64,000 bases of DNA from Acidimicrobiaceae bacterium (GTDB lineage Bacteria; Actinomycetota; Acidimicrobiia; Acidimicrobiales; Ilumatobacteraceae). Below, piece by piece: positions 20,885-35,357 of this stretch. Both the position numbers and the translations under genes were made by a program. The stretch is taken from positions 170,228 through 234,227 of the forward strand of contig JACJWF010000004.1 of assembly GCA_020637295.1 (NCBI GenBank), in the 5' to 3' direction. A model generated the notes under the pieces. The model did not search any database, was not told the DNA's origin, and was given only the letters and a program-made list of their open reading frames with translations. Numbering within the stretch: position 1 is the stretch's first letter; each line of letters begins with the position of its first letter.

Positions 20885-21463
20885 TCAGGAGTGCTGCGTG
20901 CGGTAGCGCCAGGTGCGGATGGAGTCCGGCCAGGCGCGGGGCGGCAGGCCGGCCTTGCGCCACAGCGCGCCCACCCACCCGGTGGCGTCGGGGATCTCCT
21001 CCCACACGGACGGCAGGAACGTGGCCCGGTGCCGTCCGGCCTCCACCAGCACGCCGTCCACGCCGGGGCGCAGCGTCGCCACGAGCGCGTCGTAGCCACC
21101 GACCTCGAACGGCTCCATCGGGGTCAGCACCGATACCTCGACCGAGAGGTCGTCCAACTCGTCCGGGCCCAGCGGCGGGAAGCGTGGGTCGTTGAACGCC
21201 GCTGCCCGCGCCCGGTCGGCGGCGGCCAGCGCCAGCGGGAGTTGCGGTGTCATCGTCCCGATGCAGCCGCGCAGCGCGCCGCCGCGGCGCAGGGTGACGA
21301 ACACCGCACCGTCGCGCCGCAGCGCGGCCGGCTCGTCGGCGGTGGAAGGGTCCCAATGATGACGGCGGGTGACGGCGTCGACGACGGCGCGGTGGGCGAT
21401 CGCTGCCAGCCGGGCGAGCTCGGCGCTGGTGAGGTCGGGGGCTGTGCTGGCGTGGGCGTTCAT
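20885..21463 (-). CDS. amrA: AmmeMemoRadiSam system protein A (AMMECR1 domain)
   Basis: GAVFVTLRRGGALRGCIGT...RATFLPSVWEE, 192 aa. ATGA overlap with the upstream MEMO-like gene. Confidence 0.85.
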   Translation of the reverse strand: MNAHASTAPDLTSAELARLAAIAHRAVVDAVTRRHHWDPSTADEPAALRRDGAVFVTLRRGGALRGCIGTMTPQLPLALAAADRARAAAFNDPRFPPLGPDELDDLSVEVSVLTPMEPFEVGGYDALVATLRPGVDGVLVEAGRHRATFLPSVWEEIPDATGWVGALWRKAGLPPRAWPDSIRTWRYRTQHS

Positions 21464-22266
21464 CGGATCTCGAAGCTCCCGTAGCCGACCACCCGGTCCT
21501 CCGGCCCGGCGGTGTCGCCCGACGTGCGCAGGTCCAGCAGGCGCACACGCTGGCCGTGACGCAGGCACAGCTCCATCGCCGCCCGCACCCCGCTGACACC
21601 GCAGGCCTGCTCGCCGCCCAGCCCCGCCCACTGCAGGGCGACGACGGCCTCGGCCGTGGCCAGGTCGATGGCCCGGGCCTCGTGCAGCGGGTGGTAGTGG
21701 CTGAGGTCGGTGGACACCACCACCAGCGTGTCCTCCTTGCCCCACCAGGGGGTGAGGGCGTCGGCGATCTGCGCCGTGCCGTTGCCGCCGGCGATGACCG
21801 GCACCAACTGCCACCCGCCGTCCAGGCTGCGCTGGAGGAAGGGGACGTGCACCTCCAGGCTGTGCTCCTCGGCGTGGGCGCGGTCGTCCACCACCACACC
21901 GGGCAGCGTGGCCATGGCGGCGCACGCCTCGGTGTCCACCTCCACATGCCCGAGTGGCGTCGCCCACGCGGCGGCGCTGCTGAGCGCCAGCCCGCGCACG
22001 GGCGCACGGTGCGGCACCCCGACCAGCACCACCCGCCGGATCTGCGCGGCCCAGGGGCGGACGAGGGCGTACGCCGTGGCGGCGACCGGGCCGGAGTAGA
22101 CGTAGCCGGCGTGGGGGGCGATCACCGCCACCGGGGGTCGGGTCGGGGTGCCGGTGGCCTGCGGCGGGCGGGCAGCGGCAAGCAACCCGTCGACCGTCCT
22201 GGCCAGTGCCTCCGGGTCGGCCGGGTAGAAGGTCCCCGCCAGTGCGGGCGGTCGAATGCGTGTCAT
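21460..22266 (-). CDS. amrB: AmmeMemoRadiSam system protein B (MEMO1-like)
   Basis: MTRIRPPALAGTFYPADPEAL...VIAPHAGYVYSGPVAA...STDLSHYH, 268 aa. Confidence 0.85.
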   Translation of the reverse strand: MTRIRPPALAGTFYPADPEALARTVDGLLAAARPPQATGTPTRPPVAVIAPHAGYVYSGPVAATAYALVRPWAAQIRRVVLVGVPHRAPVRGLALSSAAAWATPLGHVEVDTEACAAMATLPGVVVDDRAHAEEHSLEVHVPFLQRSLDGGWQLVPVIAGGNGTAQIADALTPWWGKEDTLVVVSTDLSHYHPLHEARAIDLATAEAVVALQWAGLGGEQACGVSGVRAAMELCLRHGQRVRLLDLRTSGDTAGPEDRVVGYGSFEIR

Positions 22267-22285
22267 CGAAACCACCTTCCAGTGC

Positions 22286-23413
22286 TCACGGAGCGTGTGC
22301 CGCAGCCACATCGGCCGGGCTCGACGACAGGCGCACCGGGCGCCGCCGCCTGCCCCACTCGCCGGGTGGGCCGTCGAACACCCCTGCAACCGGGGCGCCG
22401 CACTCGGTGCAGCGTCCGTCGCCCGTCAGCCGGTACGCATCGATGCGGTACCAGTCGCGCACCACGGTGGGCGCACCGCACTCCGGGCAGTGGGTGGTGC
22501 CGCCGACCGTGTCGTGCACATTGCCGGTGTACACGTAGCGCAGGCCGTTGGCGATGGCCACCCGGCGGGCCCGCCGCAGCGTCTCGGGCGGTGTGGGCGG
22601 CACGTCGAGCATCCGGAAGTCGGGGTGGAAGGCGCTGAAGTGCAGCGGCACGTCCGGGCCGAGGTGGTCCGCCACCCACGCGCTCAGCCGGGTGAGCTCG
22701 GCGTCGGAGTCGTTGTGCCCAGGGATGACGAGGGTGGTGACCTCCACCCACACCCCGTTGGCCACCAGCCACTCCAGGGTGTCCAGCACGGGCTGCAGGT
22801 GACCGCCGCACACATGGCGGTAGAAGTCCTCGGTGAACCCCTTGAGATCGATGTTCGCCGCATCGATGCGCGAGAATAGTTCCGCCCGCGGCCCCTCGTG
22901 CACGTAGCCGGCGCTCACCGCCACGGTGCGCAGGCCGGCCGCGTGGCAGGCGTCGGCCGTGTCCGCGGCGTACTCGAGGAAGACCACCGGGTCGTTGTAG
23001 GTGAAGGCAACGCTGGCGCAGCCTTGGGCGATCGCAGCGCGGGCGATGCCCTCCGGGCCGGCGGCATCGGCGAGGGTGTCCGTGCTGCGGCTCTTGGAGA
23101 TGTCCCAGTTCTGGCAGAAGCGACACGCCAGGTTGCAGCCGGCCGTCCCGAACGACAGCACGGACGAGCCGGGCAGGAAGTGGTTGAGTGGCTTCTTCTC
23201 GATCGGGTCCACGCAGAAGCCACTGCTGCGGCCGTACGTGGTGAGCACGATCTCGTCGTGCTCGCGGGCCCGCACGAAGCACAGCCCGCGCTGTCCCTCG
23301 CGCAGCGAGCACCCCCTCGGGCACACGTCGCAGCGGATCCGCCCGTCGTCCAGGCGGGTCCACCACCGTGTCGGGAAGCTCGCTGGCGGCTGTTCCACGC
23401 CTTCAGGATGCAC
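22286..23413 (-). CDS. amrS: AmmeMemoRadiSam system radical SAM enzyme
   Basis: CNLACRFCQNW (CX3CX2C), an N-terminal Cys motif IRCDVCPRGCSL, and a C-terminal CPECG...CTECG ribbon. I chose the GTG start at 23413 (alternative 23398) because the upstream ATGs would overlap the divergent lipoprotein gene. Confidence 0.8.
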   Translation of the reverse strand: MHPEGVEQPPASFPTRWWTRLDDGRIRCDVCPRGCSLREGQRGLCFVRAREHDEIVLTTYGRSSGFCVDPIEKKPLNHFLPGSSVLSFGTAGCNLACRFCQNWDISKSRSTDTLADAAGPEGIARAAIAQGCASVAFTYNDPVVFLEYAADTADACHAAGLRTVAVSAGYVHEGPRAELFSRIDAANIDLKGFTEDFYRHVCGGHLQPVLDTLEWLVANGVWVEVTTLVIPGHNDSDAELTRLSAWVADHLGPDVPLHFSAFHPDFRMLDVPPTPPETLRRARRVAIANGLRYVYTGNVHDTVGGTTHCPECGAPTVVRDWYRIDAYRLTGDGRCTECGAPVAGVFDGPPGEWGRRRRPVRLSSSPADVAAAHAP

Positions 23414-23492
23414 CCTCGGCGCCCGCCGCGTACAGCGCCCTTGGTCCTTCGCCGGGCCGGGTGCGGCGGGCGGCGCGGGGTACCATGCCGCG

Positions 23493-24155
23493 ATGCGAGG
23501 GGCGGGGAGGGCCATCACCGGGCTGTTCGGGGCTGTCATGGTCCTCATCACCGGGTGCTCCGCGGACTCCACGGTCACCGTGGTGCGCGACGCCGACGAC
23601 GTGCAGGTGATGTCGCCCGAGCAGGTGCTGCAGCAGCGGCTTCCGGCGGTCACCACCACGGTGCCGGGCGCCTCGGACAGTTCGGTGCCGGCCGGAGCCG
23701 GTCAGCCACCGGCCACCACCGCGGCGGCCGACACCATCCCGCTCAACCAGGACGACCGCCCGCCGGAGGTGCGCCTGTTCGCCGCGTTCGGGGAGTTCCG
23801 CGGCTGCCTGGAGGACAAGGGCTACGTGATCGAGGGCAACCTGCTGGACCCGAACAACCCGGCCATGCAGGACAGCGCGTACCGCGACGCGGTCATCACC
23901 TGCGCCGCCCGTTCGGACATCGTCGCCGTCCTCCAGGAGGTGCAGGCCACTCGGGCCAACCTCACGCCGGAGGAGGTGGAGCAGCGCAACGAGGTGTTCG
24001 TCGCGTTGCGCGACTGCCTGCGCGACAAGGGATGGACGGTGGAAGCCACCACCAGCGAGATCGGCCTCCTGGAGCCCACCGAGTTCCACGACGCCGACGG
24101 CGAGCTCGACGAGCGGGACATCAACCAGTGCCTGTCGGAGATGAACATCGGATGA
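23493..24155 (+). CDS. Lipoprotein with an internally duplicated 2-Cys module, function unknown
   Basis: Lipobox LITGC. Two copies of [FL]RxCLxDKG[YW]x[IV]E...C, at about aa 95-140 and 165-214. Confidence 0.7.
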   Translation: MRGAGRAITGLFGAVMVLITGCSADSTVTVVRDADDVQVMSPEQVLQQRLPAVTTTVPGASDSSVPAGAGQPPATTAAADTIPLNQDDRPPEVRLFAAFGEFRGCLEDKGYVIEGNLLDPNNPAMQDSAYRDAVITCAARSDIVAVLQEVQATRANLTPEEVEQRNEVFVALRDCLRDKGWTVEATTSEIGLLEPTEFHDADGELDERDINQCLSEMNIG

Positions 24156-24174
24156 CCAGTCAACGGGGAGACGG

Positions 24175-26343
24175 ATGAGGACCAGAACGGCCCTGATCGG
24201 GGGAGTGGTGGCCGTCGGCCTGGTCGGCGGCGGCCTGCTCATCGGCCGGGCGGCGACGGACGACAGTGCGCCGCGGCAGCTGCTGATCGTGCCCCGGCCG
24301 GTGGAGCGCCGCGACCTCGACGACGTGCTGACGATCAGCGGCGAGATCCGCCGCGACGAGATCCAGACGATCAACCTGCCGGTGGACGGCAAGGTCAGCA
24401 GCCTCGAGGTGGAGGACGGCGACACGATCGAGGAGGGCGACTCGCTGTTCGCCCTCGACGGCCGCACGTCGGTGGCCGTCGTCGGTGACTTCGCGTTCTA
24501 CCGCCGGCTGGACGTCGGCAGTGAGGGACCCGACGTCCGCCAGTTGGAGACCATCCTGGTGGCGGCCGGCTACCCGATCTCCTCCGTCGACACCCTGTAC
24601 ACGGAAGAGACCCGCCAGGCGCTGACGGCCTGGCAGGCGGATCACGGCTACGGCGGGGCCACCCCGGAGCCGGTGGAGACGATCACCGTCGGCCTGTCGC
24701 CCAACCAGGCCGGATACACCATCGGGAAGGCCAACACCGTCGCCTACTCGATCGTGCCCAGTGCCGCGCTGGGTGGGGCTCGTTCGCCCCACCTCCCCGA
24801 GAGCCGCCCCGCCGCCCCGCGGGGCACACCGCAGAAGCCGATCATCACGCTCGGCGCCGACCTCACCGAGGTGGTGGAGGGTGGCCAGGTGGTGTTCACG
24901 TTCGTGGCCAACCCGGCGCCGGCCAACGACATCACCGTGGACCTCACGATCGGCGGCGATGCCACCGGCGGCACGGACCCCGACGACGGGGCGGACTACC
25001 AGCAGATCACCAACAGCTTCCTGTTCCCCTCCGGGCAGACCAGCTACAGCATCAGCGTGCCGGTGTTCGTGGACGACGTGAAGGAGGACGGCGAGGAGAT
25101 CGTCGTCTCGCTGACGGACCAGTTCGGCAACGACCCCAACTATGTGGTCGGCCCGGCCAACCAGGCCCGGGTGACGATCCTCCCGAACGGCGACGACCTC
25201 GTGCCGGTCATCACGGTCACGTCGAACGCCAGCGTGGTGCGCGAAGGCGGCACCGTCACGTTCACGTTCCGCTCCACCGTGGAGTCCAACCAGCCGCTGG
25301 ACCTCGTGATCGCCCTGGGCGGCGGGGCGACCAACGGCTCCGACTACGTCGAAGTGGAACGCGACGACGTCACCATCCCCGCCGGGCAGACGTCGGCCAC
25401 CTTGCAGGTGCAGACCCGCGACGACGACCGTGTGGAGGGCGACGAGCGCATCGTCGTGGCCGTGGTGCCCAACCCGGACGACCCCCCGGGCAGTCCCAGC
25501 TACACGGTGGGCAACCCGGGCAGCGCCGCGGCCACCATCGAGAGCGACGACCTGCCGGAGCTCACCCTGCGCGGGGGCGGCGACATCCGCGAGGGCGGGT
25601 CGGCGTCGTTCACCATCGTCGCCAATGCGCCGGTGGCGGAGGACACCTCGGTCAACTACCAGGTGGGCGGCACCGCCCAGCCGGGCAGCGACTACGACAC
25701 CCTCACGGGCACGGTCATCCTCCCGGCGGGCCACAGCCAGATCACCGTTGCGATCACGACCATCGACGACGACGTGGTGTTCCTGCCGAGCGACATGGTG
25801 GTGGCCGACTGGCCGGCGCGGATCGGCACCGTCGACGTGGACGAGGGTGAGTTCGTGCTGCAGGGCGCCCCGGTGCTGACGCTCACCGAACCGGTGTTCA
25901 CGATCACGTTGGCGGTCAGCGCGTCGGATCGTGCCGAGTTGGAGGTGGGGCAGAAGGCGGAGGTCCACCTGGACGCTGCGGATGCCGACTTCACCGGCAT
26001 CATCGCCACCCTGGACGAGACGGCGACCGTGGACCAGAGCGGTGCCGAGACCTACGAGGGCACTGTGGAGGTGGAGGGCGAACTGGTGGCTGTGGACGGC
26101 GCCCGGGTCACCATCGACGTCACCCTGGCAGAACGGCTGGGCGTGCTGGTGGTGCCCGTGGCCGCCGTGCTGCGCTCCGCCGGAGGCGACCAGGTTCGGG
26201 TGATCAACGACGAAGGCACGATCAGCCGGGTCGATGTCACCATCGGCCTGATCGACGGCGAGTGGGTGGAGGTCGTCGACGGCCTGCGCGGCGACGAACT
26301 GGTGGTGGTGGACGTGGACCCGGAGGCCGACACCAGTGGGTGA
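24175..26343 (+). CDS. Membrane-fusion (HlyD/MacA-type) periplasmic adaptor with a peptidoglycan-binding segment and three Calx-beta-like modules
   Basis: N-terminal TM. Split lipoyl halves (INLPVDGKVSSLEVEDGDTIEEGDSLFALD ... ARIGTVDVDEGEFVLQGAPVLTL). PG_binding_1-like GPDVRQLETILVAAGY...TRQALTAWQADHGY. A C-terminal beta-barrel/MP domain. 722 aa. Confidence 0.75.
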   Translation: MRTRTALIGGVVAVGLVGGGLLIGRAATDDSAPRQLLIVPRPVERRDLDDVLTISGEIRRDEIQTINLPVDGKVSSLEVEDGDTIEEGDSLFALDGRTSVAVVGDFAFYRRLDVGSEGPDVRQLETILVAAGYPISSVDTLYTEETRQALTAWQADHGYGGATPEPVETITVGLSPNQAGYTIGKANTVAYSIVPSAALGGARSPHLPESRPAAPRGTPQKPIITLGADLTEVVEGGQVVFTFVANPAPANDITVDLTIGGDATGGTDPDDGADYQQITNSFLFPSGQTSYSISVPVFVDDVKEDGEEIVVSLTDQFGNDPNYVVGPANQARVTILPNGDDLVPVITVTSNASVVREGGTVTFTFRSTVESNQPLDLVIALGGGATNGSDYVEVERDDVTIPAGQTSATLQVQTRDDDRVEGDERIVVAVVPNPDDPPGSPSYTVGNPGSAAATIESDDLPELTLRGGGDIREGGSASFTIVANAPVAEDTSVNYQVGGTAQPGSDYDTLTGTVILPAGHSQITVAITTIDDDVVFLPSDMVVADWPARIGTVDVDEGEFVLQGAPVLTLTEPVFTITLAVSASDRAELEVGQKAEVHLDAADADFTGIIATLDETATVDQSGAETYEGTVEVEGELVAVDGARVTIDVTLAERLGVLVVPVAAVLRSAGGDQVRVINDEGTISRVDVTIGLIDGEWVEVVDGLRGDELVVVDVDPEADTSG
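24838..25779 (+). repeat. Three tandem coding repeats of about 105-115 aa (Calx-beta-like) inside the adaptor gene
   Basis: Each unit has xEGGxVxFT(F/I)...(D/G)xDY...(F/I/L)P(S/A)GQTSxx(I/L)xVxxxDDxxxEGxExI(V)V. The units span about aa 222-338, 343-458 and 461-535. Confidence 0.65.
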
Positions 26344-27043
26344 CGCGGACGTCCAGCCGGTCCTCGAACTGGAGCACGTGTCGCGGGTGTACGGGGACGG
26401 CGACGCTGCGGTCACCGCGCTGCACGACGTGTCGCTCCGCGTGATGCCCGGCGACTTCCTGTCGATCATGGGGCCATCCGGCTCCGGCAAGTCCACGATG
26501 CTCGGCCTGCTCGGCTGCCTGGACCTGCCGACCACCGGCACCATCCGGGTCGGCGGTCACGAGGTGACGGCGATGGACGATGCCGAGCGCAGTCGGGTGC
26601 GCGGCCGGGAGATCGGCTTCGTCTTCCAGCAGTTCCATCTCATCCCTCACCTGGATGCGATGGGCAATGTGGAGACCGCCCTGCTCTACCGTGGCCTGCG
26701 CCCGCGGGAACGCCGGGACCGGGCGATGCACGCGCTGGACCGCGTGGGCCTGGCCCACCGCCACGACCACCGGCCGGTGCAGTTGAGCGGCGGCGAGCAG
26801 CAGCGCGTGGCGCTGGCCCGCGCGCTGGTGACCGAGCCGCGCATCCTCCTCGGCGACGAGCCCACGGGCGCGCTGGACTCCAAGAACGCCGAGAACGTGA
26901 TGGAGATCTTCGCCTCGTTGCAGTCCCCTGAGCGGGCCGTGGTGCTGGTCACCCATGATCCCGGTGTCGGTGCCGCGGCGGAGCGCCGCGTGCGGATGCG
27001 CGACGGGGAGATCGTCGCCGACGAGCGGGCGGTCCGCGCGTGA
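26336..27043 (+). CDS. ABC transporter ATP-binding protein (MacB/LolD type)
   Basis: Walker A GPSGSGKST, signature LSGGEQQRVALARAL, Walker B ILLGDEPTGALD. GTG start overlaps the adaptor stop by 8 nt. Confidence 0.9.
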   Translation: MGDADVQPVLELEHVSRVYGDGDAAVTALHDVSLRVMPGDFLSIMGPSGSGKSTMLGLLGCLDLPTTGTIRVGGHEVTAMDDAERSRVRGREIGFVFQQFHLIPHLDAMGNVETALLYRGLRPRERRDRAMHALDRVGLAHRHDHRPVQLSGGEQQRVALARALVTEPRILLGDEPTGALDSKNAENVMEIFASLQSPERAVVLVTHDPGVGAAAERRVRMRDGEIVADERAVRA

Positions 27044-28227
27044 GACGGGTGCGCGAACTGATCACGGTGGCCCTGGTTGGCCTGTTCGCCCGCAAGGTGC
27101 GCACCGCGCTGCTGCTGCTCGGGCCCACCATCGGTGTGGCTGCGATCATCGCCGCGGTGGGCCTGACGGACAGCGCCAAGGGCGATCTGAAGCGCAAGGT
27201 GGCCGAACTGGGCACGAACCTGATCGAGGCGTCCGCGGCGAGTGCGTTCGGGTCGCAGAACCCGGTGCTGCCCACCGACGCGGTGGAGCGGGCGCGGACG
27301 GTCGTGACGGTGGACGGCGTGTCGGCCGTGCGCGAGTTGAGCGACATCGTCGTCACCCCGTACGAGGAGGCCACGGAGAAGTTCGAGGTCGTGCCGGTGC
27401 CGGTGCTCGCCGCCGATGCCGAACTGCCGGGGGTGCTCCAGGTGCCCATGATCAGCGGCCGCTGGCTGGACCCGTTCGACGAGGGGCCGGGCGTGCGCAG
27501 TGCCGTGATCGGTATCGGGCTGGCCCGCGAGTTCGATTACCTCCCCGGTGAGGTCCGCTCGATCGTGCTCGACGACCACGAGTACGCCGTGATCGGCGTG
27601 CTCGGTCAGGTCGAACTGGAGCCGGCCTTCGACAACGCCGTGTTCATCTCCTTCCGCGCTGCGGACGACGACTTCGTGGAGGACGACATCCAGCCGAACA
27701 AGCTCTACGTCCGCGCCGCGGACGGGACCGAGAGCGACACGGCCGAGGCGCTGAAGGTGGCGGTGGGTCTCGGCGGGCCCACCGAGGTGAACACGGAGTT
27801 GAAGTCCGAAGCGCTGGAGTTGGCGTCGCAGAGCGACCGCCAACTACAACTCATCGTCGTGGCGATGGGCCTGCTGGCGATCGTGGTCGGTGGCATCGGC
27901 ATCGCCAACGTGATGTCGATCTCCGTCATCCAGCGCTCCAGCGAGATCGGCATCCGCCGCGCGCTCGGCCACACCCGCGGCACCATCGCGCTGCAGTTCC
28001 TGTTCGAGGCCATCGTCGTCGGTGTGCTGGGCGGGATGCTGGGCGTGCTCACGGGTGTGGCCGCGATCGGCGTCGGCGTGGCGATGGCCGGATGGGTGTT
28101 CACCCTCCAGCCGGTGCTGGTGCCCGGCGGCATCATCCTGGCCGTCGCCATCTCCGTGCTCGCCGGCCTGTACCCGGCGGTTCGAGCCGCCCGCCTGGAG
28201 CCGCTGGAGACCTTGCGCCTCGGCTGA
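27040..28227 (+). CDS. ABC transporter permease, FtsX/MacB type
   Basis: TM1, then a large extracytoplasmic domain, then three C-terminal TMs. RRALGHTRGTIALQF motif. 4-nt overlap with the ATPase gene. Confidence 0.85.
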   Translation: MRRVRELITVALVGLFARKVRTALLLLGPTIGVAAIIAAVGLTDSAKGDLKRKVAELGTNLIEASAASAFGSQNPVLPTDAVERARTVVTVDGVSAVRELSDIVVTPYEEATEKFEVVPVPVLAADAELPGVLQVPMISGRWLDPFDEGPGVRSAVIGIGLAREFDYLPGEVRSIVLDDHEYAVIGVLGQVELEPAFDNAVFISFRAADDDFVEDDIQPNKLYVRAADGTESDTAEALKVAVGLGGPTEVNTELKSEALELASQSDRQLQLIVVAMGLLAIVVGGIGIANVMSISVIQRSSEIGIRRALGHTRGTIALQFLFEAIVVGVLGGMLGVLTGVAAIGVGVAMAGWVFTLQPVLVPGGIILAVAISVLAGLYPAVRAARLEPLETLRLG

Positions 28228-28315
28228 GCCGCCCGGACGGACCGGGGGCAAGTTCTCGACGACGCTTGGACGTGCTCTCACCTTCCTCCAACCGTCGCGG
28301 CGCACCGTGTGCGTC

Positions 28316-29275
28316 ATGTTCAGCGACGCACGGTTCCGGGCCATGGGCTCCGACGTGCACCTGGTGGTGCACGGCAGCCAGGCGCTGGTGGATCTGGCCG
28401 TCACCCGCCTGGCGGCCCTTGAGGCGGCATGGAGCCGCTTCCGGCCGGACAGCGAGATCAGCCGCCTCAACGCCGGTGCGGGCCGCTGGCTGGAAGTGTC
28501 TGCCCCGACAGCATTGCTGCTGCAGCGGGCCGTCGAGGGCTGGCGGCTGACCGGCGGGGCGTACGACCCGCTGCTGCTGCACGCCCTGCAGGCGGCGGGC
28601 TACGACCGCTCGTTCGAGGCACTGGACCCTGCGCTCCCTGCAGTTCCGCCGGCCCGCTGGTGGAACCGGCCGCTGCCTCCGGAGATCGAGGTGAACGGCA
28701 GCGCGGCCCGCATCCCCGCCGGCGCCGGGTTCGACCCGGGCGGGATCGGCAAGGGCCTGGCAGCCGACCTGGTGACGGCCGACCTGATGGCCGCCGGCGC
28801 GGTGGGCGTGTGCGTGTCCGTCGGCGGCGACGTGAGGGTGCGCGGCACGGCGCCGGGCGGCACCCCCTGGACGATCGCCGTCGAGCACCCGCTGGCGGCG
28901 GCACCGGTGACCCTCGTGGGGCTGTGGGACGGCGCGCTCGCCACGTCCAGCGTGCTCCGCCGGGTGTGGCAGGCGGGTGGCCGGCCGCGACACCACATCA
29001 TCGAACCCGACACGGGTGTGCCCGCACGGACCACCGCCGACCTGGCCAGCGTGATCGCCGGCGACGGGTGGCTGGCCGAGGTGCTCACCAAGCCCGTCCT
29101 GCTCCGCCCGGCCGACCGCCGCTTCGACAACGTGCCGAGCGGTTGCGCGGCGCTCGCCGTGGTAGCCGACGGCACCGTGGCTGCCACGGCATCGATGAGC
29201 CGATTCACCGGGGGCGCCCTCGTCCCCACCGTTCTGCGCTCCGTCGAGCGCACGCATCCAGGAGGTGCACGATGA
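28316..29275 (+). CDS. apbE: ApbE-family FAD:protein FMN transferase, with no signal peptide or lipobox
   Basis: MFSDARFRAMGSDVHLVV...EISRLN...GAYDP...DPGGIGKGLAAD...HHIIEPDTG. The N-terminus starts directly in the conserved core. Confidence 0.75.
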   Translation: MFSDARFRAMGSDVHLVVHGSQALVDLAVTRLAALEAAWSRFRPDSEISRLNAGAGRWLEVSAPTALLLQRAVEGWRLTGGAYDPLLLHALQAAGYDRSFEALDPALPAVPPARWWNRPLPPEIEVNGSAARIPAGAGFDPGGIGKGLAADLVTADLMAAGAVGVCVSVGGDVRVRGTAPGGTPWTIAVEHPLAAAPVTLVGLWDGALATSSVLRRVWQAGGRPRHHIIEPDTGVPARTTADLASVIAGDGWLAEVLTKPVLLRPADRRFDNVPSGCAALAVVADGTVAATASMSRFTGGALVPTVLRSVERTHPGGAR

Positions 29276-29610
29276 ACGAACCGTTCGATTCCTCCCGCTG
29301 GGATCCGCCGTACGGTCGGGTGCCGGTGTCAGCGGCGCCACCGGCATTCGACCGGCGCCCGCGGCGACGCCCGTGGCGGACTGCCGCTGCGGGCGCCGTC
29401 GCCGCCGTCTCCGGTGCGGCCGTCGCCGTCGCCGTGGTGGCGGTGGTGGCCCCGACGTTCGCCGACGACGGGCACGACGACGACGGCGTCAGCATCGAGT
29501 CGCACCACGGGGCCGAGCACGACGAGGCGGAGCACAGCGTGACCCGCTCGGCGGCGCCGACCCCGGCCCAGCCGTCGGCCCAGCCGACGACCGGGAGCCA
29601 CAGCAGTTGA
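29272..29610 (+). CDS. Small bitopic membrane protein with a His/Asp/Glu-rich exterior tail
   Basis: GGAGG Shine-Dalgarno (SD) sequence 6 nt upstream and ATGA overlap with apbE. Arg-rich N-terminus (RRPRRRPWR), one TM (AAAGAVAAVSGAAVAVAVVAVVAP), then DDGHDDDGVSIESHHGAEHDEAEH. 112 aa. Confidence 0.55.
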   Translation: MNEPFDSSRWDPPYGRVPVSAAPPAFDRRPRRRPWRTAAAGAVAAVSGAAVAVAVVAVVAPTFADDGHDDDGVSIESHHGAEHDEAEHSVTRSAAPTPAQPSAQPTTGSHSS

Positions 29611-30170
29611 GCCGTCAACCCCTCGCGCCCACCCGTGCCGCCCTCGGCAGCCGCCGGCTGTCCGCGCTGGCGGCCGCCTCCCCGCTCGCCGCGGTCCTGC
29701 TGGCTGCCGCTGCCGGGTCCGGCACGGGTGGGCCGTCCACTGCTGCCGGCGCGGCTGGCGACACTGCATCCGGCGTCGCTGCGCCGGCCATGACTGCGGC
29801 GGTGCCCACCGTTGCGCCGTCGCCGACCACCGCCCCGTTGGCAGCGGCAGCGCCAGTCACCGAGCCTGCGCCCACGTACGCCGTGTGCTCGAACTGGTAC
29901 ACGGTGGCGGCGGGCGACTCGTGGTACGCCATCGCCTCGGCTGCATCGGTGACCGCCGACGAACTGCTGGCGCTCAACGGCGGCGACGGCGCCGCTGCCT
30001 TGTATCCAGGCGACGAGATCTGCCTCCCCGCCGGTGCCGTCGTGACCACCACGACGCCGACCACCGTGGCAGCCGCCGCCACGGTGCCTGCCACCCCGGC
30101 CGCACCAGCCACCACCGCCGCGCCCGCGGCGCCGACGACGACGCCGCATACGGTCAGCGCCAGCAGCTGA
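29607..30170 (+). CDS. Secreted LysM-domain protein with no catalytic domain
   Basis: TTG start in a TTGA overlap with the previous stop. Tat-like leader GSRRLSALAAASPLAAVLLAAAAG. LysM domain YTVAAGDSWYAIASAASVTADELLALNG. Thr/Pro/Ala-rich tail. Confidence 0.6.
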   Translation: MSRQPLAPTRAALGSRRLSALAAASPLAAVLLAAAAGSGTGGPSTAAGAAGDTASGVAAPAMTAAVPTVAPSPTTAPLAAAAPVTEPAPTYAVCSNWYTVAAGDSWYAIASAASVTADELLALNGGDGAAALYPGDEICLPAGAVVTTTTPTTVAAAATVPATPAAPATTAAPAAPTTTPHTVSASS

Positions 30171-30173
30171 ACG

Positions 30174-31427
30174 TCAGGCGGCGTCGGCCACCATCGTGGC
30201 CCACCACCGCCGGATCTCGTCGGCATGGTGCCCAGGGAGGACGACGAGGTGGTTGCCGAGCGGCCGGCGGAGCAGTTCACCGGCGGCGTGTTGCGGCACC
30301 ACCACGTCCAGTTGGGTGCGGCACCGGCCGTGCCGGGGGTCGGTCATCAGCGCCTGCCCGTCCGTGACCCACAGGTGCTCGAGGCAGCGGCCGCCGAGGC
30401 GCACCACGGTCGCCGGCCCGGCAGCGAAGTGGCCGTTGATGCCCACGCCGATCCCGCTCTCGAAGTGGGTGTCCAGTTCGAAGCTCTCCACCAGCGACAG
30501 CGGCACCGTGCAGTGGGCCAGTTCGATCCTCCCGGTGGCCTCGTCGATCGCCGCCGGGTTGGCCATCCAGCCGATCCGGCCGATGAGGTGCCGAAGCCAC
30601 AGCAACGCCACCGTCGCAGCCACGTCGCCCTCGCACCCGGCCACGATGCCGTGGTCGTTCAGCGATGACAGCGCCAGGCAGCCGGATGTGTGGGCGTCGG
30701 TGACCAGGTCGAAGCACCGCACCGTGACCGCGTCGTACGCGCCTGCCGCGACCACCTCGCGCAGCACCGGCTCGAAGCGGCCGGCGGTCTCCACCTCCGC
30801 GGGGTGCGGCTCGTCGTCGTGGCGGCGGGCACGCAGGCGCACGGGCTCGGCGATCGGTGCATCGATGTTGTCGACGAAGCGGTCCATCACCGGGGCCAGC
30901 GGATGGTCCACGAGCGTCACGCCCCAACGCTCCTGGACGGCCGTCGCGTCGGGCACCGACGCCACCAGCCAGTCGCTGGGCGTGCCGACCACGCCGAGGC
31001 GGGCACGGTGCAGGCGGTGCCAGACGGCGATGTCGTGGATGGCCGCACGCAGTGCATGACCGTTCGGTGGGTCGGTGGGCAGGGGCACGTGGAGCATCAG
31101 GATGCGCCCCCGGGCCCCGTCCATCTGCAGCCGGGCCAGCACCTCCAGCGCGGCCGGCAGGGAGTTCTGGCCAGGATGGGTCAGCAGCAGCAGCGGCTCG
31201 CCCGGAACCAGTTGCTGGCGGGCCTGCCAGGCCTGCAGCACGTGGCGCTCGCTGCCGCCGGTGAGCACGAAGACGGCCAGCGGCAGCCGCGGGTCGGCGG
31301 CCTCGATGGAGCCGGCGACCTCGGCGCCCACGGCGGCGAACTGCGGCCGGAAGGCGTCGACGACGGCATCGACGGCAGCCATGTCGTGCAGGGCGGATGC
31401 GGCGGTGAGCACGGTGCACGTCGTCAT
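30174..31427 (-). CDS. Putative sugar isomerase (L-fucose/L-arabinose isomerase-like family)
   Basis: 417 aa. The GCEGDVAATVALLWL block and overall layout are reminiscent of FucI/AraA-like proteins. The assignment is tentative. Confidence 0.4.
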   Translation of the reverse strand: MTTCTVLTAASALHDMAAVDAVVDAFRPQFAAVGAEVAGSIEAADPRLPLAVFVLTGGSERHVLQAWQARQQLVPGEPLLLLTHPGQNSLPAALEVLARLQMDGARGRILMLHVPLPTDPPNGHALRAAIHDIAVWHRLHRARLGVVGTPSDWLVASVPDATAVQERWGVTLVDHPLAPVMDRFVDNIDAPIAEPVRLRARRHDDEPHPAEVETAGRFEPVLREVVAAGAYDAVTVRCFDLVTDAHTSGCLALSSLNDHGIVAGCEGDVAATVALLWLRHLIGRIGWMANPAAIDEATGRIELAHCTVPLSLVESFELDTHFESGIGVGINGHFAAGPATVVRLGGRCLEHLWVTDGQALMTDPRHGRCRTQLDVVVPQHAAGELLRRPLGNHLVVLPGHHADEIRRWWATMVADAA

Positions 31428-31674: not shown

Positions 31675-32313
31675 CTAGCGCCCCAGCATGCTGTCGTACA
31701 TCGCCCGCACGGTGGCGGTCACGTGGGCCGGCGCGCAGCGGGGATGGCCGCTCTGGAACGGCGGGGCTGGGTCGTACTCCATGTCCAGCTGTGCTGCCTG
31801 TGCGTACTCGGTGGTGCTCAGCCGCTCCAGCAGGCGCAGGCCCATATCGATCCCCGCGGACACCCCGGCAGCCGTCATCACCTTGCCGTGTTCGACCACC
31901 CGCTCCTGGGTGGGGATGGCGCCGTAGCGGACCAAGTCGTCCATGCAGTACCAGTGGGTGGTCGCCCTCACGCCCTCCAGCACCCCGGCAGCGCCGAGGA
32001 GCAACGACCCTGTGCACACTGAGGTGGTCCATGTGGTTGTGCGATGTATCGCCCGGATCCAGTCCACCAGCGGTCCACCCTCCTCGGCCATCGTGATGGC
32101 CGCCAAGCCGCCGGGCACCAGCAGCACGTCCAGCGCGTCGATCTCGTCGATGCTGCGCGTCGCCATCATCGTGAACGAACCGCCGTTGCCCACTGGGCCG
32201 GCCTGCTCGGCGACGAACGCGAAGTCCGCTCCCGGCACGCCGGCCACCGAGTGGTACGGCCCGATGGCATCGAGCGCGGTGAAGCCGGGATACAGGAGGA
32301 TGGCGATCTTCAT
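31675..32313 (-). CDS. DJ-1/PfpI-family protein
   Basis: MKIAILLYPGFTALDAIGPY...LLVPGG...SVCTGSLLLGAAG (nucleophile Cys), 212 aa. ATGA overlap with the upstream ABC ATPase gene. Confidence 0.85.
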   Translation of the reverse strand: MKIAILLYPGFTALDAIGPYHSVAGVPGADFAFVAEQAGPVGNGGSFTMMATRSIDEIDALDVLLVPGGLAAITMAEEGGPLVDWIRAIHRTTTWTTSVCTGSLLLGAAGVLEGVRATTHWYCMDDLVRYGAIPTQERVVEHGKVMTAAGVSAGIDMGLRLLERLSTTEYAQAAQLDMEYDPAPPFQSGHPRCAPAHVTATVRAMYDSMLGR

Positions 32314-33101
32314 GTGGGTTCCTTCGGTGTGGTGGAGAGCGGGGCGAACGTCAGGTGCAACGCACCGGTGAGCGGGTGTGTGCCGACATGGACACGCACC
32401 CGGAACACGTCCTCGATGAGCGCGGGTGTCAGGACGTCCGCCGGTGCACCAGTCACCACTGCGTGCCCACCTCGCATGACGGTGACGCGGTCGCAAACGG
32501 CCGCGGCGTGGTCCAGGTCGTGGAGCGCCACCACAGTGGTGAGACCGGCGTCGCGGACCAGTCCCAGGAGCTCGAGTTGGGCGTGGACGTCGAGGTGGTT
32601 CGTCGGCTCGTCAAGGAGCAGCACGGGCGCCTGCTGAGCGACGGCGCGGGCCAGGTACACACGTTGGCGTTCGCCGCCGGACAAGGTGGCTACCATCCGC
32701 CTGGCAGCCCACGTCATGCCGACCTCGGCTATGGCCGCGTCGACGAGCCGGTCGTCCTCTTGCGCGTAGTGGCCGAACAGCCCGCCGTGCGCCGTGCGGC
32801 CCATCGCCACCGTGTCGCGGACGGTGAAATCCAGGTCTGCCGTGGCGTCTTGGGTGACGACCGCCCGCCGATGGGCCGCAACGCGGGCCGACAGGTCGCG
32901 CCAGAGATCGGCACCTCCGAGGAGGACGGTTCCAGCAGCGGGGCGCAGCGCCCGGTACAGGCAGCGCAGCAGTGTGCTCTTGCCCGAGCCGTTGGGCCCG
33001 ACGAGTCCGTGCACCTCGCCCGGCGCGACCACCATGGTCGCGTCGTGGACGATCACGACATCGTCGATGGCGAGCCGGACCCCGCGCACCTCGACGTTCA
33101 T
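32310..33101 (-). CDS. Iron-siderophore/cobalamin-type ABC transporter ATP-binding protein (FepC/FecE-like)
   Basis: GPNGSGKSTLL, LSGGERQRVYLARAV, LLLDEPTNHLD, 263 aa. Confidence 0.85.
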   Translation of the reverse strand: MNVEVRGVRLAIDDVVIVHDATMVVAPGEVHGLVGPNGSGKSTLLRCLYRALRPAAGTVLLGGADLWRDLSARVAAHRRAVVTQDATADLDFTVRDTVAMGRTAHGGLFGHYAQEDDRLVDAAIAEVGMTWAARRMVATLSGGERQRVYLARAVAQQAPVLLLDEPTNHLDVHAQLELLGLVRDAGLTTVVALHDLDHAAAVCDRVTVMRGGHAVVTGAPADVLTPALIEDVFRVRVHVGTHPLTGALHLTFAPLSTTPKEPT

Positions 33102-34114
33102 GCCGTTCCCTTCGATGCACGACGCATGAGCGCGAGGAAGAACGGGGCGCCGAGCACGGCGGTGAAGATGCCCACCGGATACTCGTTGGGGCGGTCGAAG
33201 ACGCGGCTCAGCAGGTCGACGAGAACCATGAAGGACGCCCCGCCGAGCGCGGCCACCGGCAGGACTCGTCGGTGGTCCGGGCCGACTACCAGGCGGGTCA
33301 TGTGCGGCACGAGCAGTCCGACGAAGCCGATCCCGCCGGCCACCGCGACGGCCGTCGCCGTCAGCAACGAGGCGGCGACCAGCAGTTCGATGCGGAACCG
33401 GTTGGTGTCCACGCCCAGGCCGCTGGCGGTGTCGTCGCCGGTGGTCATGACGTTCATCCATCGCCCGCGGACCACCAGCCACGCCGTGGTGAGGACCATC
33501 ACGACCGTGGGGATTCGCAGGTCGTCCCATCCGGCCCCGGCGAAGCTGCCGAGCATCCAGAACATGGTGCCGCGCAGCTCCAGCGGGTTGACCTGCAGCT
33601 GGACCAGTGAGGTGAGCGCAGTGGTCAGGTAGCTCACCGCCACCCCGGCAAGGACCAGGCGGGCGGGGCCGATCCGCCCTGCCCGCTGGGCGAGTGTGAA
33701 GACCAGGATGAGCGTGATCGTCGCCCCGGCGAAGGCGGCCCCGCTGATGCCGAGCCCTCCGAGCGCCGACGAGCCGAGCAGTACGGCGAGCACTGCGCCG
33801 AACGAGGCGCCGGAGGACACGCCGAGGACGTACGGATCGGCGAGCGGGTTCCGGGCCAGCACCTGCAGCGCAGTGCCGGCGACTGCCAGCCCGCCGCCGA
33901 CGACGGCGGCCAGCAGCACTCGAGGTGTACGGAACTGCCAGATGATCTGGTCGTCGCCGCCCTTGACCACGTCGCCGATCCCGAGATGGGACAGGACGAC
34001 CCGCCACACGGTCCCGAGCGGCAACGTGACCGTCCCGAACGAGATGCCGACCAGAACGCTGAGCGCGAGCACGATGGCCAGTGCGGCGACGAGCACCGAC
34101 AGGCCCTTGCCCAT
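33098..34114 (-). CDS. FecCD-family ABC permease
   Basis: RTPRVLLAAVVGGGLAVAGTALQVLARNPLADPYVLGVSSGA...RRVLPVAALGGA. 4-nt overlap with the ATPase gene. Confidence 0.85.
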   Translation of the reverse strand: MGKGLSVLVAALAIVLALSVLVGISFGTVTLPLGTVWRVVLSHLGIGDVVKGGDDQIIWQFRTPRVLLAAVVGGGLAVAGTALQVLARNPLADPYVLGVSSGASFGAVLAVLLGSSALGGLGISGAAFAGATITLILVFTLAQRAGRIGPARLVLAGVAVSYLTTALTSLVQLQVNPLELRGTMFWMLGSFAGAGWDDLRIPTVVMVLTTAWLVVRGRWMNVMTTGDDTASGLGVDTNRFRIELLVAASLLTATAVAVAGGIGFVGLLVPHMTRLVVGPDHRRVLPVAALGGASFMVLVDLLSRVFDRPNEYPVGIFTAVLGAPFFLALMRRASKGTA

Positions 34115-34154
34115 GACGAGGAAGGGCCGCCGGTCGGGAGTCGGACGGACGGGC

Positions 34155-35306
34155 TCAGCCAAGCGTGGCGATGGCGTCGGCGATCCGCTGGATGGCAATC
34201 GCGTTGTGCGGCCCGAGGTAGGCGCTCTCCGCCACGGTCGTGTACGTGCCGGACTTGGCGGCGTCCCATTGGGGGTACATCGCGAAGATCTGGGCAGCGT
34301 ACGCGGCGGCATCCTCGCCATCCATGAACAGGCCGATCACCAGCACGTCGACGTCTGCGGCAGCCAGTGCCTCGGCGCTGATGTTCGATGAGTCGTTGAA
34401 GGTGGCGAAGTCGGGGAACGCGTTCACGCCGCCGGCAGCCTCGATGATCGAGTCGGTGAAGGGCCCGGCGAACACGCCTGGGACACCCGTCTGGTCCATC
34501 ATCGACATGCCGGGATAGGCGAGCAGCACGTGGACGTCGCCGCCGCTTGCCGGCGGCTGGATGGCGGCGATGGCCTCGCGGGCGTGCTCGATGACGTGGC
34601 CGGCTTCGTGCTGCACGTCGAAGATCAGCCCGAGCTCCTCGAGCAGCTCGAAGGACGCCTCATACGTCTGGTTCTCGTTCTTCGCCACGTCCTCGGGGCG
34701 CGGGTCGGTCACGCCGAACGCGCAGTTCACCGGTGTGACATAGCTGTTGATGCCGGCCTCGGCCAGTTCGTCGCGTGTGGCCAGACCCATCTCCGAGGAG
34801 AATCCGCCGGACCAGGTGCTGACCACCAGGTCGGGCTGGAGCGCCAACACCTGCTCACGCGGCACCTCGTAGTTCTCGTTGAGCGTCATGCCACCGTTGG
34901 GGATGGCCATGATCTGCTCCAGCATCCCGTCCACGTCCGAGACGCCGTACATCTGGCTGTTGGCCAGGATGCGGTCCTCGATGCCGAGCGCAATGAAGCT
35001 CTCCACCTCGGCGACCGATGTGCCGTTGAGAATCACGACCCGCTCCGGTGCCTTCTCGAAGGTGACTTGGCGCCCGCAGTTGTCGATGGTCAGTGGATAC
35101 TGGGTGCGCTCGCCCCCGTGCTCCACCGTGTCCGGCACCGTGGTGTCGAGGCCCGTGGTGGCGGGCGTGGTCGTGTCAGGCGCGGCGGCCGTGGCGGCGA
35201 CCGTCGTGGGCGTTGCGGTGGTGGACGCGTCGTTGGTGTCGTCGCCACAGGCAGTGACGGCGACGAGGAGCGCGGCGCAGAGAAGTGATGATCTGGAGAG
35301 GTTCAC
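34155..35306 (-). CDS. ABC substrate-binding lipoprotein (iron-siderophore/B12 periplasmic-binding family)
   Basis: Lipobox LLVAVTACG, a Thr-rich linker, and blocks typical of a class III substrate-binding protein (ERVVILNGT...PDLVVST). Confidence 0.75.
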   Translation of the reverse strand: MNLSRSSLLCAALLVAVTACGDDTNDASTTATPTTVAATAAAPDTTTPATTGLDTTVPDTVEHGGERTQYPLTIDNCGRQVTFEKAPERVVILNGTSVAEVESFIALGIEDRILANSQMYGVSDVDGMLEQIMAIPNGGMTLNENYEVPREQVLALQPDLVVSTWSGGFSSEMGLATRDELAEAGINSYVTPVNCAFGVTDPRPEDVAKNENQTYEASFELLEELGLIFDVQHEAGHVIEHAREAIAAIQPPASGGDVHVLLAYPGMSMMDQTGVPGVFAGPFTDSIIEAAGGVNAFPDFATFNDSSNISAEALAAADVDVLVIGLFMDGEDAAAYAAQIFAMYPQWDAAKSGTYTTVAESAYLGPHNAIAIQRIADAIATLG

Positions 35307-35357
35307 GGCGTCCTAGTCGCCGCAGTCGCCGGTTTGGTTCCGCAGATTCTGAGCAGG

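Follow-up and report, generated by a model that had tools for sequence, protein, structure and literature searches.

A MacB-type pump and a signal-less ApbE cassette adjoin each other in an Ilumatobacter lineage and are probably independent modules

We analysed an interval of seven genes (positions 23493-30170) within a 64-kb stretch of DNA, hereafter the window, which has a GC content of about 72% and whose nearest public relatives are metagenome-assembled genomes (MAGs) of Ilumatobacteraceae/Ilumatobacter in the Acidimicrobiia. An earlier note on this DNA had described the interval as one apparatus in which a MacB-type pump is coupled to protein flavinylation and to a LysM protein. The seven open reading frames (ORFs), here called g1 to g7, all lie on the plus strand with the starts, stops and coordinates given in that note and with spacings of 19, -8, -4, +88, -4 and -4 nt. 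They were recovered in our ORF check as well as in the independent gene calls of public contigs carrying an identical ApbE, where the same seven products of 220, 722, 235, 395, 319, 112 and 187 aa are found. The exact g5 protein occurs on at least 115 contigs, under the NCBI name FAD:protein FMN transferase (FAD, flavin adenine dinucleotide; FMN, flavin mononucleotide). The GC content at third codon positions is 0.84-0.94 in the called frames of g1 to g7, which is coding-like for a genome of 72% GC. As the spacings show, the genes are tightly packed or overlapping inside each of two blocks, g1 to g4 (module A, 23493-28227) and g5 to g7 (module B, 28316-30170), which are separated by a gap of 88 nt (28228-28315, +). 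We propose, with considerable confidence, that these blocks are two modules which evolved independently and most likely also function independently, and which came to adjoin each other in this Ilumatobacter lineage alone.

Module A begins with g1 (23493-24155, +), a predicted lipoprotein of 220 aa with the lipobox LITGC, the Cys of which is near-invariant among homologues, and with no transmembrane (TM) domain beyond the signal. Its C-terminal domain of ~135 aa holds four invariant Cys residues (C105, C137, C175 and C213), and residues ~88-220 are predicted by AlphaFold2 to adopt an alpha/beta fold with a predicted local distance difference test score above 90. The 219 homologues are all unnamed and restricted to Acidimicrobiia, and g1 has no match to a Pfam or NCBIfam family. 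The next gene, g2 (24175-26343, +), encodes a predicted membrane-anchored adaptor (membrane fusion protein, MFP) of the HlyD/YknX type with 722 aa. Its matches comprise Biotin_lipoyl_2 at residues 64-95 (Biotin_lipoyl_2/HlyD_D23), PG_binding_1 at residues 118-158, three Calx-beta stretches within residues 223-540 (E = 6e-22) and HlyD_3 at residues 542-636, with the HlyD_3/beta-barrel part extending from residue 542 onward. The RND_mfp family TIGR01730 matches residues 536-713 with 82 bits, which is under its cutoff of 94.9, and the YknX families on record gave faint or weak matches. The split lipoyl, beta-barrel and membrane-proximal domains of an adaptor are all present, and this domain architecture is kept in orthologues of 45-57% identity.

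Gram-negative MFP adaptors carry a TolC-docking alpha-hairpin between the two lipoyl halves. In g2 the inter-lipoyl region (residues ~96-541) consists of PG_binding_1 and the three Calx-beta modules in place of that hairpin, and its only sequence matches in the PDB are to the Calx-beta domain of NCX1 and to a peptidoglycan-binding domain. An alpha-hairpin for docking an outer membrane factor is absent from g2, coiled coil being found only in marine-clade orthologues, and there is no outer membrane factor gene near the pump. In the marine-clade loci concerned (L022, L023, L024, L026, L027, L030, L032, L036 and L037) the adaptors are ~920-950 aa long with a long coiled-coil segment between the Calx-beta modules, and g1 is present as two tandem copies.

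The third gene, g3 (26336-27043, +; 235 aa), begins with a GTG codon, shares 8 nt with the end of g2 and encodes an ATP-binding cassette (ABC) ATPase of the MacB/LolD/FtsE type (ABC_tran, 1e-32). Its best NCBIfam matches are the MacB nucleotide-binding domain (NBD; 1e-73), LolD and DarD, all under their equivalog cutoffs. A GTGA overlap joins it to g4 (27040-28227, +; 395 aa), a MacB-type permease in which Pfam places MacB_PCD at residues 22-237 (2e-20) and FtsX at residues 275-388 (1e-16), and which matches MacB (5nik, 1e-28), Spr0695 of Streptococcus pneumoniae (5xu1) and YtrF among PDB sequences. In MacB-type permeases the extracytoplasmic MacB_PCD domain sits between TM1 and TM2. The defining features of a MacB-type (type VII) system are found here, namely a four-TM FtsX permease with an extracytoplasmic MacB_PCD in g4 and an NBD of the MacB/LolD/FtsE subfamily in g3, and we predict that module A is a conserved four-gene type VII pump of the Acidimicrobiia, similar to YknXYZ and MacAB, with separate ATPase and permease.

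Module B begins with g5 (28316-29275, +; 319 aa), a member of the ApbE family (PF02424, 1e-45, profile positions 1-249 of 266). Since position 1 of the profile falls at residue 10, where the domain starts, the N-terminus is too short to hold a signal peptide, and no hydrophobic segment was found in the in-frame sequence upstream of the gene. All 61 clade-invariant residues are kept, including GFDPGGIGKG and H226-H227-x-x-D-P, and g5 is predicted to be a FAD:protein FMN transferase with conserved catalytic and FAD-binding segments. An ATGA overlap leads into g6 (29272-29610, +), a small protein of 112 aa with the basic N-terminus RRPRRRPWR, one hydrophobic segment, the His/Asp-rich stretch quoted in the earlier note, a Pro/Ser/Thr tail and the C-terminus …TTGSHSS. 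The last gene, g7 (29607-30170, +; 187 aa), overlaps g6 by TTGA and encodes a leader or anchor, a Pro/Thr/Ala-rich linker, a single LysM domain (PF01476, 1e-10, residues 98-141), a second linker and the C-terminus …HTVSASS, with no catalytic domain in Pfam or NCBIfam. On the domain calls Pfam agrees with the earlier note throughout: MacB_PCD/FtsX, the ABC ATPase, the HlyD adaptor with PG_binding_1 and three Calx-beta modules, the signal-less ApbE and LysM.

The two modules have different neighbourhoods in related genomes. Loci around g2 relatives were collected with one genome per species, and the seven proteins and their neighbours were mapped by tblastn. This adaptor-anchored set comprises 37 Acidimicrobiia loci with 45-91% identity in g2. 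Upstream, g1 adjoins g2 in 27 of the 28 loci with enough sequence on that side, and g3 and g4 follow g2 in 31/31. An ApbE gene lies downstream of the permease in one locus of 25, namely L001, which is 89% identical to the window at the nucleotide level. Inspection of 26 loci led us to reject the idea that module A extends to a fifth gene past g4, since the downstream content was variable and no conserved gene was found there. Conversely, homologues of g1, g2, g3 or g4 were present in none of the 87 non-redundant loci centred on ApbE orthologues (the ApbE-anchored set). The earlier note had proposed, as a check on its single apparatus, that the seven families should occur in the same order across relatives; when this check was run, ApbE, g6 and g7 were found after the permease in only that one locus of 25. 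Since the gene order is not conserved in relatives, the reading of the interval as a single system is not supported, and the break between the blocks falls exactly at the 88-nt gap.

The same boundary is seen in locus L002 (76% aa identity in g2), which blastn aligns collinearly with the window as far as the g4 stop codon (28227) and again from ~30213, a position inside the convergent 417-aa gene that follows g7. Since collinearity is interrupted only between these points, 28228-30170, that is g5 to g7 with the 88-nt gap, represents a clean 1.94-kb indel relative to L002. Between the window and L001, synonymous divergence (dS) is 0.42-0.50 for g2 to g4, 0.13 for g5 and 0.08 for g6; likewise, g5 and g6 are 94-96% identical in nucleotide sequence and the flanking pump genes 87-90%. 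Since dS is 0.08-0.13 in the one block and 0.42-0.50 in the other, the ApbE cassette has a history of its own, more recent than that of the pump genes beside it, and the pattern suggests recent transfer or recombination between lineages. Module B would be a cassette of 1.9 kb (28316-30170) inserted between g4 and the convergent 417-aa gene.

Elsewhere in Acidimicrobiia, ApbE orthologues of 50-64% identity to g5 are abundant and all lack a signal peptide. Directly downstream of ApbE, in 37 of 73 loci and often with overlapping stop and start codons, lies a gene for an MsrQ-like protein (PF01794); eight further ApbE-anchored loci carry such a gene at another position and on the opposite strand. 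These MsrQ-like proteins are short (~190 aa) and have no NAD-binding domain. In several loci, including L048 and L051, the MsrQ-like gene is succeeded by genes for a small protein and a LysM protein. No FMN-bind, DUF2271 or DUF3570 substrate was present in the ApbE clusters examined. Module B is best described, judging from gene content, as a probable reduced form of a widespread Acidimicrobiia cluster. In that cluster the signal-less ApbE is accompanied by a small leader-bearing protein rich in Ser and Thr and by a dihaem membrane protein of the MsrQ-like type (PF01794), and the small protein may also be present in a LysM form.

MsrQ-like flavinylation-associated systems are broadly conserved in Actinobacteria (Meheust et al. 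2021, PMC8238504), and by analogy the Acidimicrobiia cluster is best read as a variant of these extracytosolic electron-transfer clusters, with a presumed role in electron transfer. The relatives of the cassette share with them the placement of ApbE beside an MsrQ/ferric-reductase-like dihaem protein of PF01794 (in the 37 loci mentioned) and an actinobacterial host. They differ in that the ApbE clade has neither signal peptide nor lipobox, in that the MsrQ-like protein is short and without the NAD-binding domain, and in that small disordered proteins with a C-terminal SSHGS are found instead of a protein with an FMN-bind domain; the window itself also lacks a PF01794 gene. An ApbE acting in the cytoplasm has a precedent in Klebsiella pneumoniae, where a cytoplasmic ApbE flavinylates a soluble fumarate reductase, which demonstrates that intracellular flavinylation occurs (PMC12052999). 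Both this enzyme and g5 lack a signal peptide, but the target in K. pneumoniae is a cytoplasmic enzyme with a canonical D-x-x-[ST]-G-A-[ST] motif, and neither is encoded in the window.

The small proteins of these clusters form an unannotated family that is present in 56 of the 87 ApbE-anchored loci, and in 46 of the 70 with enough upstream sequence the stop codon of the small gene abuts the start of ApbE (examples from loci in the range L048-L135 are L053:7436-7981, L064:6166-6555 and L126:7331-7993). Their leader has the consensus RRRRPHPARRARRVTGAASVAGMLLLTGC, also given as RRRRPHPARRARR, and continues into a weakly hydrophobic region (mean Kyte-Doolittle value of the h-region, 1.6), with a lipobox in about one quarter of members. 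The tail is rich in Ser, Thr, Ala and Pro, sometimes with His/Asp- or His/Gly-rich runs, and ends in P-S-[SA]-x-A-[STND]-T-[SR]-S-[HK]-G-S-COOH; all 30 strict seeds have this last Ser. Other ORFs in the loci with the same C-terminus are nearly all further ApbE-adjacent members of the family, the few exceptions being Arg-rich and apparently non-coding. For g6, and likewise for five canonical small proteins, Pfam and NCBIfam returned noise only at E values up to 1. The conserved C-terminal motif is previously undescribed.

LysM proteins found beside ApbE or MsrQ-like genes in L048, L051, L003 and L133 end in SSSHSSG, SNSHASK, TSSHSS and SSSKGSS, respectively, and the one from L133 was matched by the hidden Markov model (HMM) of the small-family leader (E = 1e-4). 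Since the C-termini are shared and one leader matches, these partners are probably LysM-bearing versions of the same type of small protein. By architecture, position and C-terminus g6 and g7 would fit as divergent members of the family. The leader HMM did not recover g6, which is 94% identical to its L001 counterpart at the amino acid level with a dN/dS (ratio of nonsynonymous to synonymous divergence) of 0.35. Analogous His/Asp-rich proteins follow ApbE in L055, L070, L072, L003 and L134, and in the first three of these they do so directly and no MsrQ-like gene is present. A homologue search with g7 gave seven weak matches, failed to match g7 itself and was uninformative, being swamped by low-complexity sequence. 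A protein search with its LysM domain and tail returned mostly multi-LysM repeat proteins among the top 150, with one clear orthologue, P0361, which ends in …TSKPSS.

The earlier note ascribed a Tat-like (twin-arginine translocation) leader to g7. Against the consensus S/T-R-R-x-F-L-K, g7 has SRRLSAL, and the small family has ARRARR followed by the h-region described above, with no F-L-K. The candidate SRRLS was rejected as a conserved Tat motif, since the LysM orthologues do not keep it, but leaders rich in RR are characteristic of the related small family.

A number of observations, which we gather here, weigh against the reading of two independent modules or against the functions proposed for them. 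The seven genes are all co-directional, and a well-sampled population keeps their arrangement unchanged, with exact proteins on at least 115 contigs, as does L001. In the gap, 28228-28315, no sigma-70 promoter or intrinsic terminator pattern was detected, with pattern scans that are weak for high-GC actinobacteria; its fold is not unusually stable (z-score -0.32), and no Rfam match was found in the gap or in the whole interval. Since all genes are co-directional and no terminator is recognised, a single transcript is possible in this lineage, which would be incidental under our reading, and the loss of synteny leaves some room for a functional link confined to this lineage. These points, together with the short gaps or overlaps and the presence of peptidoglycan-binding domains in both modules, speak for the alternative that the seven genes are one co-transcribed envelope machine linking MacB mechanotransmission, flavinylation and peptidoglycan-bound components. 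We consider that alternative very improbable. Of 25 loci only one has ApbE after the pump, of 87 none has pump genes near ApbE, the cassette is a clean indel relative to L002, its dS is unlike that of the pump genes, and the partners of ApbE elsewhere are the MsrQ-like protein and the small tail-motif proteins, not transporters. As first described, the interval would have implied a novel type of apparatus in which an ABC mechanotransmission pump is coupled to protein flavinylation; the comparative data show instead an accident of gene neighbourhood, and recognising this prevents a false lead. In L002, which has no cassette, the stop codon of g4 lies inside an inverted repeat (CCTCGGCTGAC…CAGCCGAGG; L002:6700-6780) between convergent genes, which looks like a bidirectional terminator; a different and weaker hairpin follows the g4 stop in the window.

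Further points of the same kind concern the modules taken singly. The model of g1 found no match in the PDB by Foldseek (best E, 0.4), so that no function could be transferred. For module B, tblastn with three orthologous MsrQ-like proteins found no PF01794 homologue in the 64-kb window (best E, 0.5), and no plausible ORF of the window contains a canonical D-x-x-[ST]-G-A-[ST] motif. In L001, the sole other genome with the seven-gene arrangement, a 1-nt deletion shifts the frame of ApbE (L001:14130-15085, corresponding to about 28783 in the window), which reflects either an error in the MAG or pseudogenisation at its beginning. It could be argued from the missing partner and from this deletion that module B is a decaying, functionless remnant, left after loss of the MsrQ-like protein and persisting through recent insertion, and the dN/dS of 0.28-0.35 for g5 to g7, as opposed to 0.03-0.15 for the pump genes, is in line with this. 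We regard decay as improbable, however, since these ratios are still well under 1 and the ApbE of the window keeps all 61 clade-invariant residues. Moreover, the frameshift may be an assembly error, an MsrQ-like gene could sit elsewhere in the genome, and the loci with a His-rich small protein and no adjacent MsrQ-like gene (L055, L070 and L072) may represent a functional sub-type.

Returning to the reading of two modules, module A can be compared with the known MacAB-like systems of Gram-positive bacteria, Spr0693-0694-0695 of the pneumococcus (PMC5768738) and YknWXYZ of Bacillus (PMC4887032). It shares with them a separate MacB-type ATPase, a four-TM permease with an extracytoplasmic MacB_PCD, a membrane-anchored adaptor of the HlyD/YknX type, a monoderm host with no TolC partner, and the gene order accessory-adaptor-ATPase-permease. 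Unlike those systems, its adaptor has PG_binding_1 and three Calx-beta modules instead of the alpha-hairpin, and its fourth component is the 4-Cys lipoprotein g1, where YknWXYZ has the Yip1-type membrane protein YknW. Compared with MacAB-TolC of Escherichia coli, the permease fold family and the ATPase family are the same and the mechanotransmission mechanism is presumably shared, but module A has no fused NBD, no outer membrane duct and no hairpin, and all NCBIfam equivalog cutoffs are missed. From the biology of MacB it may be expected that ATP-driven mechanotransmission in the extracytoplasmic domain of the permease would drive a substrate off the membrane's outer face, with a peptide, an antibiotic or a lipid-linked molecule as candidates. 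The substrate would then enter an adaptor conduit that is pinned to peptidoglycan and spans it, and the g1 lipoprotein may serve as an accessory or substrate-handling subunit. Our literature searches on peptidoglycan-binding MFPs with MacB, and on ApbE with twin-arginine export, found no paper describing either module among those available to us. An Acidimicrobiia pump in which the hairpin is replaced by peptidoglycan-binding and Calx-beta domains, and which is nearly always accompanied by an orphan 4-Cys lipoprotein, would lend itself well to studying how pumps of the MacB type span the wall of a monoderm.

The C-terminal motif of the small proteins raises a further explanation for module B. 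ApbE attaches FMN to the last Ser/Thr of D-x-x-[ST]-G-A-[ST], and for this a tag of seven residues is enough, being most effective at the ends of proteins (PMC12052999). No co-encoded ApbE substrate of a canonical type, such as FMN_bind, DUF2271, DUF3570 or NqrB/C, is present in the window, and g6 and g7 contain no domain of that kind; the only related feature is a C-terminal [ST]-S-H-[GS]-S. It is possible that g6, g7 and the wider small family are themselves direct substrates of ApbE, with FMN on the C-terminal Ser of [ST]-S-[HK]-[GAS]-S-COOH. When the tail is aligned to the canonical tag, the two agree at position -3 (Ser/Thr) and at position 0 (Ser), position -1 is small (Gly as opposed to Ala), and position -6 is Asn or Asp in about one third of family members, but position -2 is His or Lys where the canonical tag has a conserved Gly. 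In L087:2553-2843 an internal R-S-S-G-A-T-K stretch is present in the tail, of which R-S-S-G-A-T is canonical, in addition to the C-terminus …TTKGS. The close linkage of the small gene to ApbE (46/70), the invariant terminal Ser together with the apparently non-coding nature of matches outside the family, the sufficiency of a short terminal tag, and the lack of FMN-bind, DUF2271 or DUF3570 substrates in the clusters would all favour direct flavinylation, as would the finding that ~4% of genomes keep "orphan" ApbEs (PMC8238504).

Since ApbE is predicted to be cytoplasmic and the tails are predicted to lie outside the cell, modification before export has to be assumed. The RR-rich leader RRRRPHPARRARRVTGAASVAGMLLLTGC, with its low hydrophobicity and, often, a lipobox, would reconcile the two locations, although it lacks the full Tat consensus. 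Flavinylation would occur first, in the cytoplasm, after which the leader would export the cofactor-loaded protein. The flavin would then be carried on a disordered Ser/Thr/Pro tether, anchored by lipid, membrane segment or LysM, and may relay electrons from an MsrQ-like cytochrome through the Gram-positive wall. His/Asp-rich stretches such as that of g6 may bind metal acceptors and might deliver electrons to metals. Counting against this are the divergence of g6, missed by the leader HMM, and of g7, which ends in VSASS, and the ease with which Ser-rich, low-complexity tails give loose motif matches. Being inferred from sequence only, direct flavinylation of the small proteins is put forward tentatively, as something we would sooner expect not to hold. 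If it does occur, the recognition motif and the substrate range of ApbE would expand, some of the "orphan" ApbEs would be explained, and abundant freshwater and marine actinobacteria would have a minimal tethered-flavin route for extracytosolic electron transfer. An unplanned outcome of this analysis that merits further work is the SSHGS small-protein family, with its linkage to an ApbE lacking a signal and to an MsrQ-like cytochrome.

On its upstream side the interval is flanked by divergent genes for a radical SAM protein and a Memo-like protein (21460-23659, -), a pair of the AmmeMemoRadiSam type, which is syntenic only in the closer relatives L001, L002, L003, L006, L010 and L029. The 417-aa protein encoded convergently to g7 (30174-31427, -) has no Pfam family; its gene adjoins the pump in L001, L002 and L006 and lies upstream of it in L029. 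Flavinylation clusters of the MsrQ-like type have been linked to the reduction of iron and to its uptake. Some 1.5 kb past the ApbE cassette a block begins (~31675-36000, -) in which a DJ-1/PfpI protein precedes an ABC importer of the siderophore type (ABC ATPase, FecCD permease and Peripla_BP_2), which is also found at L136:9360-12960, and given that link to iron the importer may be relevant to the cassette.

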